Positions 20,154 through 63,331 of a DNA stretch of 64,000 bases are shown here, piece by piece. The stretch spans positions 123,814,001 to 123,878,000 of the forward strand of contig OX597819.1 of NCBI GenBank assembly GCA_951406725.2, given 5' to 3'. A model generated the notes under the pieces. That model made no database searches and was not told the origin of the DNA. It saw only the letters and a list, made by a program, of their open reading frames with translations. This stretch comes from Octopus vulgaris. Lineage: Eukaryota. Both the position numbers and the translations under genes were made by a program. Within the stretch, counting starts at the first letter, position 1. Each line of letters begins with the position of its first letter.

Positions 20154-20752
20154 TATTTCTTTACTACCCACAAGGGGCTAAACACAGAGGGGACAAACAA
20201 GGACAGACAGACGGATTAAGTCGATTACATCGACCCCAGTGCGTAATTGGCACTTAATTTATCGACCCGAAAGGATGAAAGGCAAAGTCGACCTCGGTGG
20301 AATTTGAACTCAGAACGTAGCAGCAGACGAAATACCTATTTCTTTACTACCCACAAGGGGCTAAACATAGAGAGGACAAGCAAGGACAGACAAACAGATT
20401 AAGTCGATTACATCGACCCCAGTGCGTAACTGGTACATAATTTATCGACCCCGAAAGGATAAAAGGCAAAGTCGACCTTGGCGGAATTTGAACTCAGAAC
20501 GTAGCAGCAGACGAAATACCTATTTTTTTACTACCCACAAAAGGGCTAAACACAGAGCGGACAAACAAGGATATACAAACGGATTAAGTCGATTATATCG
20601 ACCCCAGTGCGTAATTGGTACTTAATTTATCGACCCCGAAAGGATGAAAGGCAAAGTCGACCTCGACGGAATTTGGACTCAGAACATAATGGCAGACGAA
20701 ATACCGCTAAGCATTTTGCCCGGCATGCTAACGTTTCTGCCAGCTCGCCGCC
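20154..20752 (-). mobile_element. SINE family C trimer
   Basis: One headed unit plus two ~183-bp headless units. Confidence 0.9.
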
Positions 20753-21407: not shown

Positions 21408-21822
21408 TTTCTTTACTACCCACAAGGGGCTAAATACAGAGAGGACAAACAAGAACAGATAAAGGGATTAAGTCGAATACATCGACCCCAGTGTGAAACT
21501 GGTACTTAAGTTATCGACCCCGAAAGGATGAAAGGCAAAGTCGACCTCGGCGGAATTTGAACTCAGAACGTAACGACAGACAAAATACCTATTTCTTTAT
21601 TACCCACAAAGGGCTAAACATAGAGGGGACAAACAAGGACAGACATGGGTATTAAGTCGATTACATCGACATCCAGTGCGTAACTGGTACTTAATTTATC
21701 GACCCCGAAAGGATGAAAGGCAAAGTCGACTTCGGCGGAATTTGAACTCAGAACGTAACGACAGACGAAATACCACTAAGCATTTCGCCCGGCGCGCTAA
21801 CAATTCTGCTAGCTCGCCGCCT
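21408..21822 (-). mobile_element. SINE family C dimer
   Basis: Headed unit plus headless unit, junction near 21589. Confidence 0.9.
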
Positions 21823-32678: not shown

Positions 32679-33127
32679 TATTTCTTTACTACCCACAAGG
32701 GGCTAAACACAGAGGGGACAAACAGGGACAGACAAACGGATTAAGTCGATTACATCGAGCCCAGTATTCATCTGGTACTTAATTTATCGACCCCGAAAGG
32801 ATGAACGGCAAAGTCGACCTCGGCGGAATTTGAACTCACAATGTGGCGGCAGACAAAATACCACTAAGCATCTCGCCCGGCCTGCTAATGTTTCTTATTT
32901 ATTTACTGCCCTCAAGGGACTACAAACAGAGGGGACAAACAAGGACAGACAAACGGATTAACTTGATTGCTTCGACCCCAGTGCGTAACTGGTACTTAAT
33001 TTATCGACCCCGAAAGGATGAAAGGCAAAGTCGACCTCGGCGGAATTTGAACTCACAACGTGGCGGCAGACAAAATACCGTTATGCATTTCGCCCGGCGT
33101 GCTAACGATTCTGCCAGCTCGCTGCCT
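32679..33127 (-). mobile_element. SINE family C dimer with a different junction
   Basis: Two units; the downstream unit keeps part of the head. Confidence 0.85.
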
Positions 33128-34681: not shown

Positions 34682-35083
34682 TATTTCTTTACTACCCACA
34701 AGGGGCTAAACACAGAAGGGACAAACAAGGACAAACAAACGGATTAAGTTGATTATATCGACCGCAGTGCGTAACTGGTACTTAATTTATCGACCCCGAA
34801 AGGATGAAAGGCAAAGTCGACCTCGGCGGAATTTGACCTCAGAATGTAACGGCAATACCTATTTCTTTACTACCCACAAGGGGCTAAACACAGAAGGGAC
34901 AAACAATGACATACAAACGGATTAAGTCGATTATATCGGCCCCAGTGCGTAACTAGTACTTAATTTATCGACCCCGAAAGGATGAAAGGCAAAGTCGACC
35001 TCGGCAGAATTTTAACTCAGAACGTAACGGCAGACGAAATACGGCTACGCATCTCACCTGGCGTGCTAACGTTTCTGCCAGCT
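34682..35083 (-). mobile_element. SINE family C dimer
   Basis: Headed plus headless unit, junction near 34859. Confidence 0.9.
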
Positions 35084-52659: not shown

Positions 52660-54165
52660 TCAGGATTTGGGCACCAAGGCCCATTCGAGCAGAGAGTTAT
52701 TGTTTGCGGAGACATATCCGGGTGTGGGTGGTTTGTCCGGTACTGTTTGAAGGAATTTGTCCAAAGACTTCTTGAATTTTGTGTGGTCAGTTTCTTTTTT
52801 GACGTGCCCTGGTGTAATGTTGAAGAGAGCAGGTCCAATTGAGGTGAAATAGTTGTGCCGTATTGTCGTTATGTGATGTGATTTAGATTTTTGTTGTGGA
52901 CGGATGGCACGTGGTCCAAGCCTTGGATGCATTTTGAAGGTGATGCCAACATCATTCGGACAGTCCTGGTGGAATATTTTCCACATCATACAGATAATGT
53001 AGCGTTCACGGCGTCGTTGGAGTGAATACAATTTCAGCTTCTCTAGTCTAGCCCAGTAGTCAAGGTCTGACATGCCATCTATCTTTTTTGTGATTGACCT
53101 TTGGGGAGCTTCAATTCTCATAATATTTTGTTTTGTGTAGGGAGACCACAGTGGACAGCAGTATTCAAGGTGGGGTCGGGCAAAAGTGGAGAAGAGAAGG
53201 ATAATAGCGTGGGAATCTCTCGACTGGAAGGTTCTGAGAATCCAGGAACACATTCTGCGGGCCATGTCAACTTTGCTGCTTATATGTGTAGCCCAGCTTA
53301 TGTTGTTGTCCACTGTTACTCCCATGTCTCTGATGTTGTTGGATGCCATGAGAATTTCTCCAGAAGGAAGAGAGTATGGGAGTTTCAGAGCGTCCTCCCT
53401 TCCAAAGTGGATCAGTTCAAATTTGTCTTCATTTAGCAACATGTTATTCTTTTCCGCCCATTGGACAACAGCCAGTAGGTCTGACTGAAGGTTTATTCGG
53501 TCATCCACGCCATTGATGACCTTCTGGAGCTTGGAATCATCAGCGAAGGTTCTGATGTTACTGTGTTTGATGGTGTCAGTAATATCATTTATGTAGATGA
53601 TGAAGAGAAGTGGGCCCAACACAGTGCCTTGTGGGACACCACTGCTGACTTTGGCTGGGCTGGATTTGACTCCTTCGACTACAACATGTTGGGTTCTGTT
53701 AGACAGGAAGCACTTGATCCACTGCAGCAACTTTCCAGTGACACCAATATTGGACAGCTTTCTCAGAAGGATCTTATGATCAACCCTGTCAAAGGCCTTG
53801 CTGAAATCAAGGTAGATGACATCAGTGTTGGAACCTTCTCCCAAGGCTCTCAAAATGTCATCAAAATGATGCAGTAGCTGCGTCAGGCAATCTCTCCCAT
53901 TACGGAATCCATGCTGGTTGGGGTTCAGCATATTATGACTCTCAAGGAAGTGAGTCATACGCGATCTCAGCACCCTCTCAAATACCTTGATGATATGAGA
54001 GGTGAGTGAGATTGGACGGTAATTCACGGCAAGCGATTTGTTTCCTTTTTTGAAAACTGGGACAACAGACTGGGATAGAAGGTCCTCTGGTATATATCCA
54101 GCATCCAGTGAGTTCCGCCACAGATTGGCTAGAGGGGGTGCAAGTTGGTTTTGACACATCTTCAA
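52660..54165 (-). CDS. LINE reverse transcriptase domain (open part of ORF2)
   Basis: 501-aa ORF with all RT motifs. Confidence 0.9.
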   Translation of the reverse strand: MKMCQNQLAPPLANLWRNSLDAGYIPEDLLSQSVVPVFKKGNKSLAVNYRPISLTSHIIKVFERVLRSRMTHFLESHNMLNPNQHGFRNGRDCLTQLLHHFDDILRALGEGSNTDVIYLDFSKAFDRVDHKILLRKLSNIGVTGKLLQWIKCFLSNRTQHVVVEGVKSSPAKVSSGVPQGTVLGPLLFIIYINDITDTIKHSNIRTFADDSKLQKVINGVDDRINLQSDLLAVVQWAEKNNMLLNEDKFELIHFGREDALKLPYSLPSGEILMASNNIRDMGVTVDNNISWATHISSKVDMARRMCSWILRTFQSRDSHAIILLFSTFARPHLEYCCPLWSPYTKQNIMRIEAPQRSITKKIDGMSDLDYWARLEKLKLYSLQRRRERYIICMMWKIFHQDCPNDVGITFKMHPRLGPRAIRPQQKSKSHHITTIRHNYFTSIGPALFNITPGHVKKETDHTKFKKSLDKFLQTVPDKPPTPGYVSANNNSLLEWALVPKS

Positions 54166-54251
54166 GACACAAGCAGGGAACCTATCGGGACCTACTGCTG
54201 AATTATGCTTAATTTCCTTTATTGCTGCTAAGACATCAGGAGCGCCAAATG

Positions 54252-55469
54252 TTATGTCCGATAAAGTGTATACAGCCCAGATACAGCCCAGATACAGCCC
54301 AGATCAGTCATATCAGGATTACTGAAAACAGAGCAATATTGTTTCTGCAATATCTCTCCCATGGTTTTGGCATTGTCTTGAAGAGTACCATTTTCATCAA
54401 TCAGAGGGCCAACAGTAGAACCAGTGACTCTGTGTTTTTTTGCAAATGAAAAGAACACTTTGGGATTGAGTTTGATCTTCTCAATGGCCCAGGCCTCTTC
54501 AGCTCTTCGCTGACTATTGATGATAGACATCATGTTGTTTTGGAGTTTATGTTTTTTAATCTCTAGCGACGAGATGGCAGTCAGGTTGGTGTGTTGCTGT
54601 TGACAGTATTTCAGCATGTTGATCTTTTTGTTGATTCTTTTAATTTTCCTTATGAGAGATTTTCTATTTCTAGGGATTCGACACTTAGATTTGTTTGCAG
54701 ATCTTAATGGGGTGTGTCTTGCACATATGTTCATGATGGTGTCTACAAGTGACTGCCAGGACTTTTTAATGTTAGTGGGTGTGTATGTGTGCGTGAAGGA
54801 CCAATCGACTTGTGCAAGATCATTATTGATCGCTTCCCAGTTTGCATTGTGGAAATCCATAGTGTCAAATGGATGAACAGGAGGGATGACATTTGTTTTG
54901 CATTTTGGCCAGTAAAATCTCAGATCACAGAGAACCATGTCATGGTCGGAGAGTAGGGTTTTCTCCACTGCAATATTGTGGATAGTATCAGTGTGATTGC
55001 TGAAAATTAAGTCTAAGACGTTTTTGTGACATCTCGTTGGTTCGAGTACCAGTTGGGACAAGAAGAAGTCATCCATGAAGTCAAGAAGCGATTCCACTGC
55101 CTCCCTGTCAGGGGTTGAGAGAGAAGAACCTGGCGGCAGACTGTTTGTAGACCAGTCAACCCCGGGAAGGTTGAAGTCTCCCATCATTAAAATGTTGTCA
55201 GGTTGACACTGCTGAATGAAACACTTTATACTGTTGAGGCATTCCTTGAAGCATGGTAGGGGCGTTTGGGGTGGTCTGTAGAGCCCAACTACTGTTAAGT
55301 TGTTGGTTTGACTGAATACAGCGACTGCTTCGCAGTATCCATTCGAAAATATGTTCATGGCTTCTGTTGAGAATGAATCATGGACATAAATGGCAGTCCC
55401 ACCCTTTCTTCTGCCAGCACGATCAGCACGAATGGTTTTGAAATTTTTAACTTTCACCTCGGCTTCCAA
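54252..55469 (-). CDS. LINE apurinic-like endonuclease and linker (part of ORF2)
   Basis: 405-aa ORF with EEP motifs. Confidence 0.88.
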   Translation of the reverse strand: MEAEVKVKNFKTIRADRAGRRKGGTAIYVHDSFSTEAMNIFSNGYCEAVAVFSQTNNLTVVGLYRPPQTPLPCFKECLNSIKCFIQQCQPDNILMMGDFNLPGVDWSTNSLPPGSSLSTPDREAVESLLDFMDDFFLSQLVLEPTRCHKNVLDLIFSNHTDTIHNIAVEKTLLSDHDMVLCDLRFYWPKCKTNVIPPVHPFDTMDFHNANWEAINNDLAQVDWSFTHTYTPTNIKKSWQSLVDTIMNICARHTPLRSANKSKCRIPRNRKSLIRKIKRINKKINMLKYCQQQHTNLTAISSLEIKKHKLQNNMMSIINSQRRAEEAWAIEKIKLNPKVFFSFAKKHRVTGSTVGPLIDENGTLQDNAKTMGEILQKQYCSVFSNPDMTDLGCIWAVSGLYTLYRT

Positions 55470-55795
55470 GTGGAAGATGGGTTTCAGTGAGGACGAAGAA
55501 AGGGATGTGGTTTGGATGGGCCTCGACCCAGTCCTCCAGGAATCTTATCTTCCATTGGTGGAAGGGCTGATGCCTTGGGCATTAAGCAGAAATGTTGAGG
55601 CGAGAGTGGATGGTTTTAATTGTTTTGGTGATTTGTTTATTTGATTGCTTTTTAATGGCATGTGCAGTGGGGTATTTGTGGTGGATGGTGGTGGGTGATA
55701 GCTCGGATGTTTTTTTCCAGTTCTTTTGCTAGATTCATTATAGATATATTATAGATATATATATATATATACATATATATATAAATATACATATA

Positions 55796-55829
<34 letters not shown>

Positions 55830-55864
55830 AATATACATATATATATATACATATATATATATAC

Positions 55865-55928
<64 letters not shown>

Positions 55929-55940
55929 ATATATATCCGT

Positions 55941-57184
55941 TTGGCTGAGCTCGTCCTCACCCTCAATTGCTTCACATTCGCCGGGGAAACGTACCAACAG
56001 GTGTCCGGGGTCGCGATGGGAACTAGGATGGGCCCCAATTTCGCCAATCTCTTTCTTGGCTACATTGAGGCCCAAGTGTTCTCCCAGTTCTCTGGGCCGA
56101 CCCCGAACTATACGGTCGCTATATCGACGACTGTGTAGGTGCCACCTCCCTTTCCCGGGAACGTCTCGGCCAATTCATCTCTTTCCTTTCCAACTTTCAC
56201 CCCTCTCTTCAATTCACCTCCACCATCTCCAACACCTCTGTCAACTTCCTTGACATCTCTCTCCGCATCGATCACCCCTCCAGCTCTCTCACCACCACCG
56301 CCTTCTTTAAACCTACGGATTCCCACCTCTATCTCAACTTCTCTTCCTCCCACCCCTTCCACACCAAACGAGCCATCCCCTACTCCCAGTTCCTCCGCCT
56401 CCGACGTTTGTGCAGCCGCGACCAGGATTTCGAGACCCAATCTCAATACCTGGCCCGCATGTTCAGACTCCGAGGTTGCCCACCCACACTCCTCTCTGAT
56501 GCCCTCACCCGCGCCCGTCGCATCGACCGCACTACCGCCTTGTCTCCTTCCCCCCGCCCACCCCCCAACCGCACCCCCTTCCCCCTCCTTTTCCACCCCT
56601 CTACCCTACCCCTTCGTCGCAAGATACTACGTGCCTTCCGTCGCCTCCAGCTTGATCCCACCACCCGCCCCATTTTCCCTAACCCACCCCTGTCCTCTTT
56701 CAAACGAGCCCGCAATCTGCGTGACCTCCTGGTCCACAGCACCCTCTCCCCTTCCCCCTCAGCCCCACACGGATCATTCCCTTGCTCTAGATCCCGCTGC
56801 AACACTTGCCCCTTCATCACCAACACCACCGCTGTCACCGGCTCCAACCTGCATACTGTACGCATTAGGCACTCTTTTACGTGCACCTCGTCTGGCCTTA
56901 TTTACTGCATTAAATGCAACCTATGCGGGATGCTGTATGTAGGTCAGACGGGACGCCGGTTGTCCGACCGTTTCACTGAACACTTGAGGGACGTTCGCCT
57001 ACACTCTTTTTCTCCCGTCGCACGCCACTTCCGCTCGGCCGGCCATTCCCGAGATGACATCTCAGTGTTTGGTCTCGCCCCCCACAATGGTCGCCCACTT
57101 TCCAGGCTCCACTTGGAGCAACGCTACATCTTCACCCTACAAACTACCACCCCACACGGACTTAACACAGCCCCCTCCTCTTGA
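55941..57184 (+). pseudogene. Neptune PLE RT C-half plus zinc finger plus GIY-YIG; frameshift near 56102
   Basis: [73 protein letters not shown]. Confidence 0.92.
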
Positions 57185-60073
57185 GACCGTTTTTTTTGTT
57201 TTTTTTTTTTTTTTTTTTTCCGGACACACCACCCACACACACCCACCCACCTACCTCCCACCCACCTACCTACCTCCCACACGCCTGTTCACACACACAC
57301 ATACGTAGACCCATCTACGTACATACATTCACACATTTAATCACACACACTTACAGACACACATGCACATACACACACACATACATACACACACGCATAC
57401 ATACTTACACACACACACACAGACATACATACACACATACACACACACATACATACGCACATACATACACACACACTCACACACACACACCGCACGTACA
57501 TACCTCACACACACACACATGCACACATACATGTAGGCACATACATACATACATACCCACACATGCACACCCGTACACTGAATGCACACACACATACACC
57601 TTTTTGCATCCAGGCAGCCCCCCCCCCTCTTTTCTGCTTTCCGGTTTTGGCTGATGGATCCTCGGTTCCCGCGTAGCGGGGCGTTCGAGGGCCTTTGCGC
57701 TCGCGCGCCTTGGCGCGCGCTGGGGGCTCGGTCGGCCCCTTTGGGCTTGCGTTGCACTGCTTGTGCGTTGTGTGCGTGAGCGCGCTTCGTGTGTGTGGGC
57801 TTGCTTCGGATGTGCGCTTGCGTATGTTTGCATACATACCCACACACTCGCATGCATCCCTACCCACATACATACACGCACACCTACTCACACACACACA
57901 TACACACACACACATACCCGCACACACACACACATACATACATACACACACATACCCACTTCAGACATACACACACACAGACATACACCCATACACCCAC
58001 ACTCACACGCATACACACACACACATACACACGCACACGTACACATACACACACACACACACCCACATACATACATTACACTTGTATACGCACACACTTA
58101 CATTCATACACACACACCTACACAGCCATACCCTCACTCAGACACACACATCTACCTACACACACACAAACACACACTGACACACACCCATACATAGATA
58201 CATCTACACACTCACGCCTACACACATACATACACACATACATAAACACACACACATACACATACACACACATACGCACACACGCATATACTTATACACA
58301 TGCACACACACACACATACATACACCCATATACATACACACACACATACCTACATACTCCTATACGCACATACATACACACAGACATACACACATACACA
58401 CTCACACAAACATACACACACACATACTTACACACACACTCACCTGCACGCGCACACACATGCATGACAAACACTCATACACTCACACTCACATACGCAC
58501 ACACCAACATAAACACGCACACGCACACACACACCTACACTCCCACACACATACACACGCACCTACATACACACACGCACGCATACACACGCATACACAC
58601 ATACATTACACACGTACACACACACCTACATACACATGCACACACACACACACACAAACATGCACGGACACACCCAGACATACATACATACACCTATATA
58701 CACACGCCTACACACCTACATACACACACATATACACACGCCCACACAGCTACATACACACACATACATACACACATACACGGACACACCCATACATACT
58801 TACATACATACACCTATACACACACGCCTACACACCTACACACACACATGCACACACACACACATGTACGCACATACACACACATATACGCACACACATA
58901 TATACCCACACACATGCACACACACACACATACGCACATACATGCACGCATGCACACGCGCACACCTACACGCATACACACACACACACGCACGTACACA
59001 TACATACATACACACACGCATACATACACCCATACACATACATGCATCCTACACACACATACATACACACTCACACATACATACACACACACGCACTCAC
59101 TCACACACCTGTATGTTCGCGCACACACATGCACATACACACACTTCCCCACACCCACACGTACATACATACACACTCATACACACACACACACACACAC
59201 ACACGGACATACATCTATGCACACACATATATACACACATACTCACATACATTCATCGGACACACTGCCACCCAGACATACACACAGACACACTCACACA
59301 TCCACACGCACACATACGTACGCGCACACTCGCAGGCTCGCGCACACACGCGTTTGCGCCGGTTCGCGCACGCATGCGCCCGCATGCACCTCGCCCTTGG
59401 ACCCGACGAGACCTCCCGCCCGTTCCTGGGATGTCGCTTGTCGTTGGGTTTTCCCACGCCCGTCTCCGCGGGACCACTCCTCCATCTTCCCCTCCGCTGG
59501 AGTCCTTTTCCTAACCCCCCCCCTTTTTTTTTTTTTTCGTTACACACACGCGCACACATATACACACATTGCTTAAACATATACATCACTCTTACACACA
59601 TTCAATCTACTCGCCACTAATACTACCACGACACTGGACACACACACACACTACTACTCAACACACGCTGGCACGCTACATACGCCCCCACCCCTTCCCC
59701 TCCCTCCCTTCCTCCTTCCTCCCTTTTCTCACTACTGACCTTTGTCTGCTATGCTGCTGCTATGCTGACCACCGTCTCGCCCTACCTCACACGCCTACAC
59801 ACAGACGCACACACTAACACATACATATATTTTTTGTTTTTTTACCTCGCCTCACACACACACATACACACACGCACACGCACACACTCACACATACACA
59901 CACATCTGTTGCGTTACCAACCTTGTCTCCACTCTTTTGCCTTTAAAAACCCACTTTGCTCTTGTTATCGTAAACATCCGCCTTTCACCATGTGCTTCTG
60001 CTAACACCAGCCGTTTTTTTCTATCTCCGTTGCCCGCTCCGGGATCTTTCTTTCCTCTCTCTTCCTTCTTTAT

Positions 60074-60108
60074 GTTTCCGACGAAGAGCTCCGCTCGAAA
60101 CGTCATAC
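60074..60108 (+). ncRNA. Minimal variant hammerhead (CCGACGA core)
   Basis: GTTT-CCGACGA-A-GAGC TCC GCTC-GAAAC-GTC^ATAC. Confidence 0.6.
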
Positions 60109-60194
60109 CTCCCTGCTTCCATTTCCTGAGCGCCTATTAATAATAATACTGTAATTGTTCCCTTGTTGTTGTTTTTTTGTTTCCCGTTTGGATT

Positions 60195-60227
<33 letters not shown>

Positions 60228-60231
<4 letters not shown>

Positions 60232-60518
60232 TAATCCAAACAAGAAAACACAGAAAAAAAGAGAAAAAAACACAGCAACGCAGGACGTGGAACAATTAAA
60301 GTATTATTGACGCTCAGGAAAGAAGGGAAGGAGGGTTTAACGTTTCGAGCGGAGCTCTTCGTCGGAAACAAGGAGAAGGAAAGATCCCAAGGAGGGAAGA
60401 CAGAGGAGACAATATTTGAGCTGGTGGTGCTTAAGAGATCACATGTTGAAAAGAACAGAATTTGGAGGTAGTTGAAAAATGGTTTTATAATGCAAGAGAG
60501 TTCCAAAAAAAGGGAATG

Positions 60519-60551
<33 letters not shown>

Positions 60552-61291
60552 AAGATGACAAGTGTGTTTGTGCGTGCGTGTGTGTGTCTGTGTGTGTATT
60601 TTTTGATGAATAAAGGTAATGACAAAGCCAGCTGTGGTGATGACTGCTAGCTGTTTGTGTCAAGCTAGGACAAAGCCAGGTCAAAAAACAAAGGGCTATA
60701 TGTATCATAGTGTATGTGTTGTTTGTAGTGTGTGTGTGTGTGTGTGTGTGCATGTGTGTGTTCGTGTGTGTATGCGTAGAGTGTGGGTGTGTGGCGTAAC
60801 CTAGTACGTGTGTGCTTGTACGTGCGTGTGTGTGTGTAGGGATGTATATGTGGGTTTATTTGTGTGTGTGTATGTATGTGTGTATGTGTGTGCGTGTATG
60901 TGTGCGTTTGTATGTGTTTGTGTGTATGTGTGCGTGCGCGGTAGGTGTATATTGTGTATGTATATCTGTCGGTGTGTATGTGAGTTTGTGTGTGTTTGTA
61001 CGCGTGTATGTGTGTGTGAGTGTATAGTATATATATATGTAAATGTGTGTGTGTGTGTGCGTGTGTGTGTACGTGCGTGCGAGTGAATGTATGTATATAT
61101 GTGTGCGTGTGTGTACAATGTAGGGGGCTTATATGTGTGTTTATATGTGTGTGTGTATGTATGTGTGTATGTGTGTGTGTGTGTATGTATGTATGTATAT
61201 GTATGCGTGTGTGTATGTATGTATGTGTGTGTGTGTGTGTGTATGTGTGTATGTATGCGTGTGTGTATGTATGTATGTGTGTATGTGTGTA

Positions 61292-61322
<31 letters not shown>

Positions 61323-63185
61323 ATGTATGTGTATGTATGTATGTATGTATGTATGTATGTATGTATGTATGTATGTATGTGTGTATGTATGTATTTTTGC
61401 ATGCGTGTATGTGTGTATGTGCGTGTGTGTACATATGTATGTTTATGTATGTGTGTGTATGTATGTATTTATGTATGTAGTGTATGTATGTGTGTGTGTA
61501 TGTATGTATGTATGTATGTATGTGTGCATGCGTGTATGTGTGCATGTGTGTGTGTATGTATGTATGTATATATATGTGTGTGTGTGTGTGTGTATGTATG
61601 TATATGTGTGTGTGTATGTGCGTATGTATGTATGTGTGTGTATGTGTGTGTGTATGTGTGTATGTATGTATGTATGTGTATATGTGTAAGTTTGTGTGTA
61701 TGTATGTATGTATGTACGTGTGTGTGTATGTATGTGTGTGTATGTATGTATGTGTGCGTGCGTGTGTGTGTGTATGTATGTATATGTATGTTTGTGTATG
61801 TATGTATCTATGTATGTATGTGTGTTTGTATGTGTGTATATATGTATGTATGTGTGTATGCGTGTGTGTATGTGTGTGTGTATGTGTGTAAGTGTGTATG
61901 TATGTGTGTGTATGTAAGTGTGTGTGTATGTATTTATGGACGGGTGTATGTGTGTAAGTGTGTGTGTGTGTATGTGTATGTATGTATATGTACGCGTGTG
62001 TGTATGTATGTATGTGTGTATAGTATGTGTGTGTGTATGTATGTATGTGTCCATGCGTGTATGTGTGCATGTGTGTGTCTGTATGTATGTATGTATATGT
62101 ATGTGTGTGTGTATGTATATATGTGTCTATGTATGTATGTGTGTATGTATGTGTGTATGTGTGTGTGTATGTATGTGTGTGTGTATGTATGTATGTATGT
62201 AAGTGTGTGTGTATGTATGTGTATATATGTATGTGTGCATGCGTGTATGTGTGTATGTGCGTGTGTGTACGTATGTGTGTATATGTATGTGTGTGTATGT
62301 ATGTGTGTATGCATATATGCATGTGTGTATGTGTGTGTGTATGTATGTGTGTATTTGTGTATGTGTGTGTATGTATGTATGTATATGTATGTGTGTGTAT
62401 GTGTGTATGTATGTGTTTGTGTGTATGTGTACGTGTGTGTATGTATGTTTGTGTGTATGTGTGTATCTGTGTATGTATGTGTGTTGTATGTATGTATGTA
62501 TTATGTGTGTGTACGTGTGTGTATGTATGCATGTATGTATGTGTGTGTATGTATGTGTGCGTGCGTGTGTGTGTGGCTATGTGTGTGTGTATGTATGTGT
62601 GTATGTATATGTATGTGTGTGTATGTATGTATGTGTGTATGTATGTGTGTGTGAATGTATGTATGTGTGCATATGTGTATGTATGTGTGTGTGTATGTAT
62701 GTGTGTGTATATATGTATGTGTATGTGTATGTATGTATGAATGTATGTATGTATGTATGTATGTGTGCGTGTGTGTGTATGTATGTATGAATGTATCTAT
62801 GTATGTATTATGTGTGTGTATGTATGTATGTGTGTGTGTGAATGTGTACGTGTGGGGGTGGGGTTGGAGTTGTGTGGGCGTAAGGTACATGTGCGTGTGT
62901 GCGCTTACGTGCGTGTATCTGTGCGTCCCAGCTAGGTGTTTACAGGAGTGTGCGTATCTGTATGAGTATTGTCCCTGGTGTGTGTGCACGGGCATGTGTG
63001 TGTGTGCACGTGTGTGTGTGCACGTGTGTGTGTGCACGTGGGGGTGTGTGGGTGTGTGTATGGGTGTGGAAGTATGTGTGCGTACATGTGCATGTACGTT
63101 GTGTGTGTGTGGTGTGTTGGGAGTAGGTGTGTACGTGGGTACGTGAGTATGTGTGTGTGTGTGTGTGTGTGACTGCATAAGGACA
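60228..63185 (-). mobile_element. 3' end of a second Neptune-like PLE (pLTR plus CA-rich UTR), tail-to-tail with the first
   Basis: 60290-60370 is a diverged reverse complement of 60073-60160 with hammerhead at 60335-60369, followed by ~2.6 kb of GT/GTAT repeats. Confidence 0.7.
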
Positions 63186-63248
63186 ATTATAAAAATTTTT
63201 TAAAAAAATAATAATAATAATAATTAATAAACAATTTATTTATATATA

Positions 63249-63331
<83 letters not shown>

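Follow-up and report, generated by a model that had tools for sequence, protein, structure and literature searches.

The window, by which we mean the whole stretch of 64,000 nucleotides of Octopus vulgaris DNA that was analysed (contig OX597819.1, positions 123,814,001 to 123,878,000), carries a 5'-truncated copy of a Penelope-like element (PLE). Its ORF ends at 57184, the element itself ends at 60195, and the insertion is into TA repeats. In coordinates of the window, the features are:

55739..55936, no strand: TA microsatellite bordering the insertion on its 5' side; another TA run lies at 60200-60227
55937..57184, plus strand: truncated PLE ORF (end of RT, CX4CxxC linker, GIY-YIG endonuclease), 5'-truncated, read from the translation
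57190..57604, plus strand: start of the 3' UTR, a poly-T run and then the first CA-rich block, read from the sequence
57605..57830, plus strand: arm 1, the 5' arm of a predicted hairpin; inverted duplicate of the arm-2 segment and of the adjacent CA repeat
57836..59299, plus strand: CA/CATA microsatellite forming the loop, G-poor, about 1.47 kb, of variable length among copies and subfamilies
59300..59512, plus strand: arm 2, the 3' arm of the predicted long-range hairpin and the subject of this report, derived from a native A-rich UTR segment; ancestral A>G, then T>C compensation
59540..60195, plus strand: end of the element with the tail of the UTR; contains a minimal hammerhead-like motif at about 60077-60105
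60228..63170, minus strand: inverted UTR of the sister family B, with neither arm present; used as outgroup

In terms of type, the element fits the EN+ Penelope-like elements of the Neptune/Nematis type. As far as the available parts of the published descriptions go, these have a RT followed by a C-terminal GIY-YIG endonuclease, a CX2-5CxxC linker, tandem copies with pseudo-LTRs and microsatellite targets (PMC8557442; the mechanism is described for a Poseidon element in PMC11167929). A sibling copy (L043) has an open frame of 1008 amino acids, with RT and C-terminal GIY-YIG in a single ORF, and the linker ahead of the endonuclease reads CSRSRCNTC in translation. Matches to the Pfam models GIY-YIG and RVT_1 are weak, both being under the curated cut-offs. 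Tandem arrangement with pseudo-LTRs was also found, with units about 6.2 kb apart. A full copy of family B has 89% amino acid identity. The assembly searched comprises 2.8 Gb in 227 contigs.

The surroundings of the element are also rich in repeats. The 3' UTR of family B (60228-63170, minus strand) lies tail to tail with the element in the same TA repeat and is without the source segment known from a further family, F. On the minus strand at 52660-55544, two long frames (547 amino acids, RT-like, and 430 amino acids, endonuclease-like by eye) of a LINE-type element adjoin the PLE. Tandem arrays with a related repeat unit of 178-217 nt are found at 20154-20705, 21408-21774, 32679-33112 and 34682-35032. 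As for the presumed hammerhead-like motif, it occurs at 60077-60105 and again at 60342-60368 on the minus strand, with C in place of the usual core U. It is invariant in the subfamily consensuses, and neither occurrence has a Rfam match.

The first-pass annotation had singled out a patch within arm 2 where CA repeats grade into CG repeats. The repeat that it quoted is found at 59320-59370, and CA indeed grades to CG at the left edge. It had also counted seven A after a G among the ten A in 59391-59505. This count is correct (10 A in 115 nt; binomial p=0.003-0.005 at local G content) and the pattern is real, but its origin lies mostly in A gained later and not in survivors of editing. Only two of the ten (59411 and 59484) are A along the whole lineage and six are later gains, while the remaining two are A in the outgroup and G in the oldest hairpin subfamily. 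Poly-C/poly-T runs adjoin both this patch and its counterpart in arm 1, as had been observed. They carry no signal, however, since their length varies between copies and they are absent at arm 2 in older subfamilies.

The patch is a feature of a young family with at least 313 near-identical copies. We found 313 genomic matches to a 32-nt patch pattern in which A was permitted at all eight G positions. Among the 100 of these matches that were listed, 98 are all-G and two have one or two G>A. The best 40 matches to the patch are 95-100% identical, and siblings that are 97-99% identical carry the same G, so the edit is not confined to a single insertion. With a pattern from the tail, away from the arms, we found 390 copies, and 60 young ones were examined (the first 64 listed minus 4). 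None of these 60 shows private hyper-editing or unedited arms. Unedited siblings are likewise absent from the 100 listed of the 313 matches and from the 38 matches to a pattern of the older subfamilies. Among these copies, the proposed comparison with siblings yielded no unedited one, but an unedited source was found in the outgroup family F.

According to the predicted folds, the two patches together make up a single imperfect inverted repeat, one arm each, within the 3' UTR of this young Penelope-like family. The region 57635-57835 against 59305-59510 gives a predicted duplex of -221.5 kcal/mol, compared with -144±7 for dinucleotide shuffles (0/500 as good; z -10.6). The non-repeat halves of the arms alone reach a duplex z of -5, also with 0/500 shuffles as good. 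A consensus fold across the older subfamilies has 114 long-range pairs, from 57643/59492 to 57799/59321. G-U wobbles are common in this predicted duplex and A.C mismatches are nearly absent (0-1 of the 114 consensus pairs), which assigns the structure to the sense RNA. No comparable duplex is present in family B, where the best 120-nt tile pair has -26 versus -104. The arms are kept as a predicted duplex of -147 to -286 kcal/mol in all 34 two-armed copies of one set and in 14 of 20 of another, with a loop of variable length. Pairing is also better between cognate arms than after swapping (double-centred diagonal of -6 to -21, against +5 to +12 for A x D).

As for the role of the predicted hairpin, we would guess that the CA array is looped out by it, so that the end of the ORF comes close to the 3' terminus of the RNA. 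A Rfam search over 55900-63300 gave 111 sub-threshold matches; not one reached the gathering score or was particular to the arms. By eye, a ribozyme or a SECIS element was considered for each patch, an idea that was dropped when the arms were found to pair mutually. Stalling of the RT at the hairpin was also discarded: 39 of the 60 young copies are truncated, and their 5' truncation points are spread over the UTR (7 in arm 2 and 2 in arm 1), with no clear enrichment. Three 5' truncation points (L121, L109, L041) lie within 11 nt of each other in arm 1, at the equivalent of 57688-57698.

Older relatives of the family were recovered with a codon pattern and with searches using diverged arms, and comprise the subfamilies A2, A3, C, D1, D2, E1 and E2. 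Trees built from the ORF end and the terminal region, with the arms excluded, give a ladder that starts from B and has E2 as a side branch. The order of the lineage is E>D>C>A. E1 (7 copies) is the oldest hairpin-bearing subfamily, and the step from F to E1 is the comparison used for the founding event. These comparisons are made on consensuses of 2-11 copies, with an alignment that is uncertain in the CA part and with ladder steps that are not independent.

Family F was reached through an A-rich 18-mer, predicted by reverting the wobbles of the oldest subfamily. This 18-mer has 58 exact matches in the genome (control 0), and no two of them are close together in opposite orientation. The 12 loci that we fetched belong to family F, a PLE in which the source segment is present once, A-rich and with no arm 1; 11 of them were used, leaving out L217, which is truncated. 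F is placed between B and the hairpin-bearing subfamilies, with a bootstrap of 100 on the F/E split, and is a relative, not the direct ancestor, that differs near 59465-59480. No hairpin copy with unedited or partly edited arms was found among the 38 older-pattern and 58 18-mer matches, and so one burst of conversion and several rounds of it are indistinguishable.

Some variation was observed around the source segment itself. In the family F copies (L207-L218), the GT-rich core of the segment varies between G and A from copy to copy, and its pairing with the CA array is weak (-50 to -71 kcal/mol); an earlier small hairpin and editing round may lie behind this. Three E2 copies (L175, L180, L185) have a second inverted GT-rich insert 3' of arm 2, with more A>G on its flanks than E1. 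From the sequence, duplication and editing seem to have happened here a second time. The E2 count of 26 A>G is inflated by a misaligned insertion and was left out of the comparison.

From F to E1, arm 1 had 24 of its 34 A turned into G, and arm 2 had 14 of its 36. Both arms together have 60 substitutions, of which 38 are A>G and 7 are T>C. The APOBEC-type change, G>A on the sense strand with F as outgroup, accounts for 3 against the 38 A>G. The conversion reaches 54% of the A in the arms (38/70) compared to 3% (6/213) in the ORF end, tail and terminus (p=1e-21), and in these flanks, on the same branch, C>T is more frequent than A>G (10 and 6). In terms of pairs, A-U became G-U in 37 of 80, while G-C became G-U in 2 of 57 (p=7e-9). 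Tolerance of wobbles alone cannot explain such a difference. In both arms the A>G changes are on the sense strand of the ORF and limited to the predicted paired region. The G sites are a founder pattern common to the old copies, with G in at least 80% of them at 15 arm-2 sites (28/34 copies passed the alignment filter) and at 27 arm-1 sites (17/34).

The conversion is real, surprising and well supported at the level of sequence. The first-pass annotation is borne out in its central claim, namely that, compared with an unedited relative, the patch has undergone A-to-G conversion of its sense strand, clustered within predicted dsRNA. Its argument from two patches with the same strand polarity to clustered editing holds for the polarity and for the sense-strand A>G, but there are neither separate segments nor one recent transcript. 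The idea of a second, independent patch on its own dsRNA segment is refuted, as the patches are reverse complements that pair mutually and come from one source segment. Nor was the edit made in the transcript behind the present copy: it is shared by the oldest hairpin-bearing copies, and private hyper-editing is seen in 0/60 young ones.

The neighbours of the changed A show a weak bias. A 5' G precedes 2/67 changed and 5/31 unchanged A in a per-copy count (p=0.03). On the consensuses, where only 7 A with a 5' G are available, the figures are 3/38 and 4/26 (p=0.43). A before T was spared, making up 10/38 of the changed and 16/26 of the unchanged A (p=0.009). ADARs dislike a 3' U. Depletion of 5' G is an ADAR preference across metazoans, according to the accessible part of PMC5625713. 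A wobble-context test inside the old subfamilies, made without the outgroup, was uninformative (p=0.15-0.75).

After the founding step, the arms kept changing together. Original A-U pairs that became G-C increase from 4 in E1 to 23 in the window, those that are G-U decrease from 37 to 9, and mismatched or gapped columns increase from 15 to 40. Changes of U>C affect 15/138 G-U versus 2/82 A-U pair-steps (p=0.03) in a register taken from homology to F, which is fold-independent. In a fold-based register, which leans toward pairing, the counts are 17/111 and 2/115. Taken as a single step from E1 to the window, compensation is not significant (16/35 versus 7/24, p=0.28). The present patch has a diluted signature, with 12 A>G, 22 T>C, 9 A>T and 6 A>C relative to F over 59372-59503.

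The evidence for editing that continued after the founder is equivocal. A>G per A-step is 14/183 in the arms and 30/2182 in the controls, and a 5' G was missing from all 20 A losses, though 43 of the 183 opportunities had it (p=0.005). On the other side, post-founder A>G and C>U have similar rates in the fold-independent register (5/82 versus 12/287, p=0.55), and singleton A>G in young copies shows no excess (2/1444 A site-copies in arm 2, 0/282 in arm 1). Contigs from three runs guessed to be RNA and from one DNA run have no A>G place over 59318-59520, which is no evidence either way, as contigs drop rare variants.

We give a probability of about 80% to the following reading: the patch is the 3' arm of a predicted RNA hairpin of about 150 bp, and its G-richness is likely a fossil left by ADAR, which would have edited A to I in the RNA of an ancestral element; this RNA was then reverse-transcribed into the germline and inherited by all later subfamilies. 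Homology shows that the A-rich segment, single-copy in F, underwent an inverted duplication about 1 kb upstream. The sense transcript would then have formed a near-perfect duplex in vivo, and about half of the A on both arms, and on the arms only, changed to G, presumably by ADAR. ADAR as the responsible enzyme is inferred from the sequence pattern, and the genome has four loci with predicted ADAR/ADAT-type deaminase domains. The RT of the element would read inosine as G and so fix the edits, and the edited copy would have founded the lineage E>D>C>A, whose members carry the founder pattern. The U opposite the new G were then replaced stepwise by C, turning G-U into G-C as the arms co-evolved. 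Selection on pairing probably acted on the hairpin, and the present stem, A-poor, GC-rich and broken by mismatches, would be a poorer ADAR substrate.

We rate a wider claim somewhat short of even odds. Host ADAR may be a recurrent germline mutagen on an active retrotransposon. An accidental inverted duplication would be hyper-edited and inherited, and a ratchet from A-U to G-U to G-C would then lead to a selected, editing-resistant hairpin, now a cis element of the most recent, expanding subfamily.

The changes could be explained without any editing enzyme, by ordinary mutation and selection for pairing in which G-U is tolerated. Pairing is indeed maintained and compensated, and the similar post-founder rates of A>G and C>U, both of which form wobbles, are what this explanation expects. 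We nevertheless consider it improbable, and for the founding step it is largely refuted. C>U gives an equally tolerated wobble but is found at 2/57 G-C pairs against 37/80 for A>G, the flanks of the same branch have more C>T than A>G (10 versus 6), and the change in 54% of A in the arms compares with 3% outside. Drift of the microsatellite, with slippage and homogenisation from CA to CG, could draw on the CA/GT-derived inner halves of both arms and on a loop that evolves by slippage. Its chance, which the first-pass annotation had already held to be the lesser one, is negligible: the unedited outgroup segment already refutes it, the non-repeat halves have the same A>G and the same complementarity, and CA repeats outside the duplex changed far less often than arm 2 (A>G in 11/839 and 11/146 A-steps).

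A different process on structured templates, either misincorporation by the RT within the stem or deamination of adenine in hairpin or hybrid DNA during retrotransposition, seems very unlikely. In vitro, ADARs can act as deaminases on the DNA strand of model DNA:RNA duplexes, according to the available part of a review (PMC12925331). Deamination of first-strand cDNA, however, would appear as T>C on the sense strand, and both arms have A>G; the change is also limited to the paired region, with a weak neighbour bias in the direction of ADAR. The literal version of the earlier proposal, in which the transcript behind this copy underwent independent editing on two separate segments of dsRNA, has next to no chance and is already refuted. 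Each patch folds locally (z about -1.8) and both have the same strand polarity, yet mutual pairing is far better, there is one source segment, and the pattern is common to at least 313 copies and to seven older subfamilies.

As a rule, edits in RNA are not passed on to offspring. In this case a pattern of the ADAR type is recorded in germline DNA via a retrotransposon that was still mobile afterwards, and the implication is that ADAR is active on the RNA of retroelements in the germ cells or the early embryo. With the unedited source and a ladder of subfamilies in one genome, the evolution of an edited duplex can be followed site by site. The locus would also give a record of past ADAR specificity, and it makes it possible to ask directly if the structure and the GC content of mobile-element RNAs are shaped by editing.

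In the literature consulted, mostly open papers and abstracts, we found no published case in which edits of the ADAR type are passed down a lineage of retrotransposons, which is not proof of absence. The accessible descriptions of Neptune/Nematis-type PLEs (PMC8557442, PMC11167929) mention neither a long internal hairpin in the 3' UTR nor inherited A>G, unlike the element studied here. As for other deaminases, APOBEC G>A editing is made on cDNA and fixed in vertebrate LTR retrotransposons, and it was absent from 19 invertebrate genomes screened, going by the parts seen of PMC4866542 and PMC2873906. Our case resembles it in being a strand-biased deaminase cluster kept in genomic copies and found by comparison with an unedited source element; it differs in being A>G, limited to a hairpin and in an invertebrate PLE. 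Hyper-editing of repeat-derived dsRNA is described in metazoan transcriptomes, including octopus and lizard Penelope RNA (PMC5625713, from the portion available). The likeness lies in the clustered A>G within repeat dsRNA and the 5'-G depletion, and Penelope RNA can evidently be heavily edited. Those edits, however, are in somatic RNA reads, while here they are inherited DNA changes. Finally, A-to-G hypermutation of an inverted repeat is known in avian retroviruses, as summarised in the part available of the review (PMC12925331). There, too, an inverted-repeat region of a reverse-transcribing element has about half of its adenosines turned into G. In the octopus, on the contrary, the element is a non-viral PLE, and the changes are in the germline, in a lineage of hundreds of young copies, with compensation through at least seven subfamilies.
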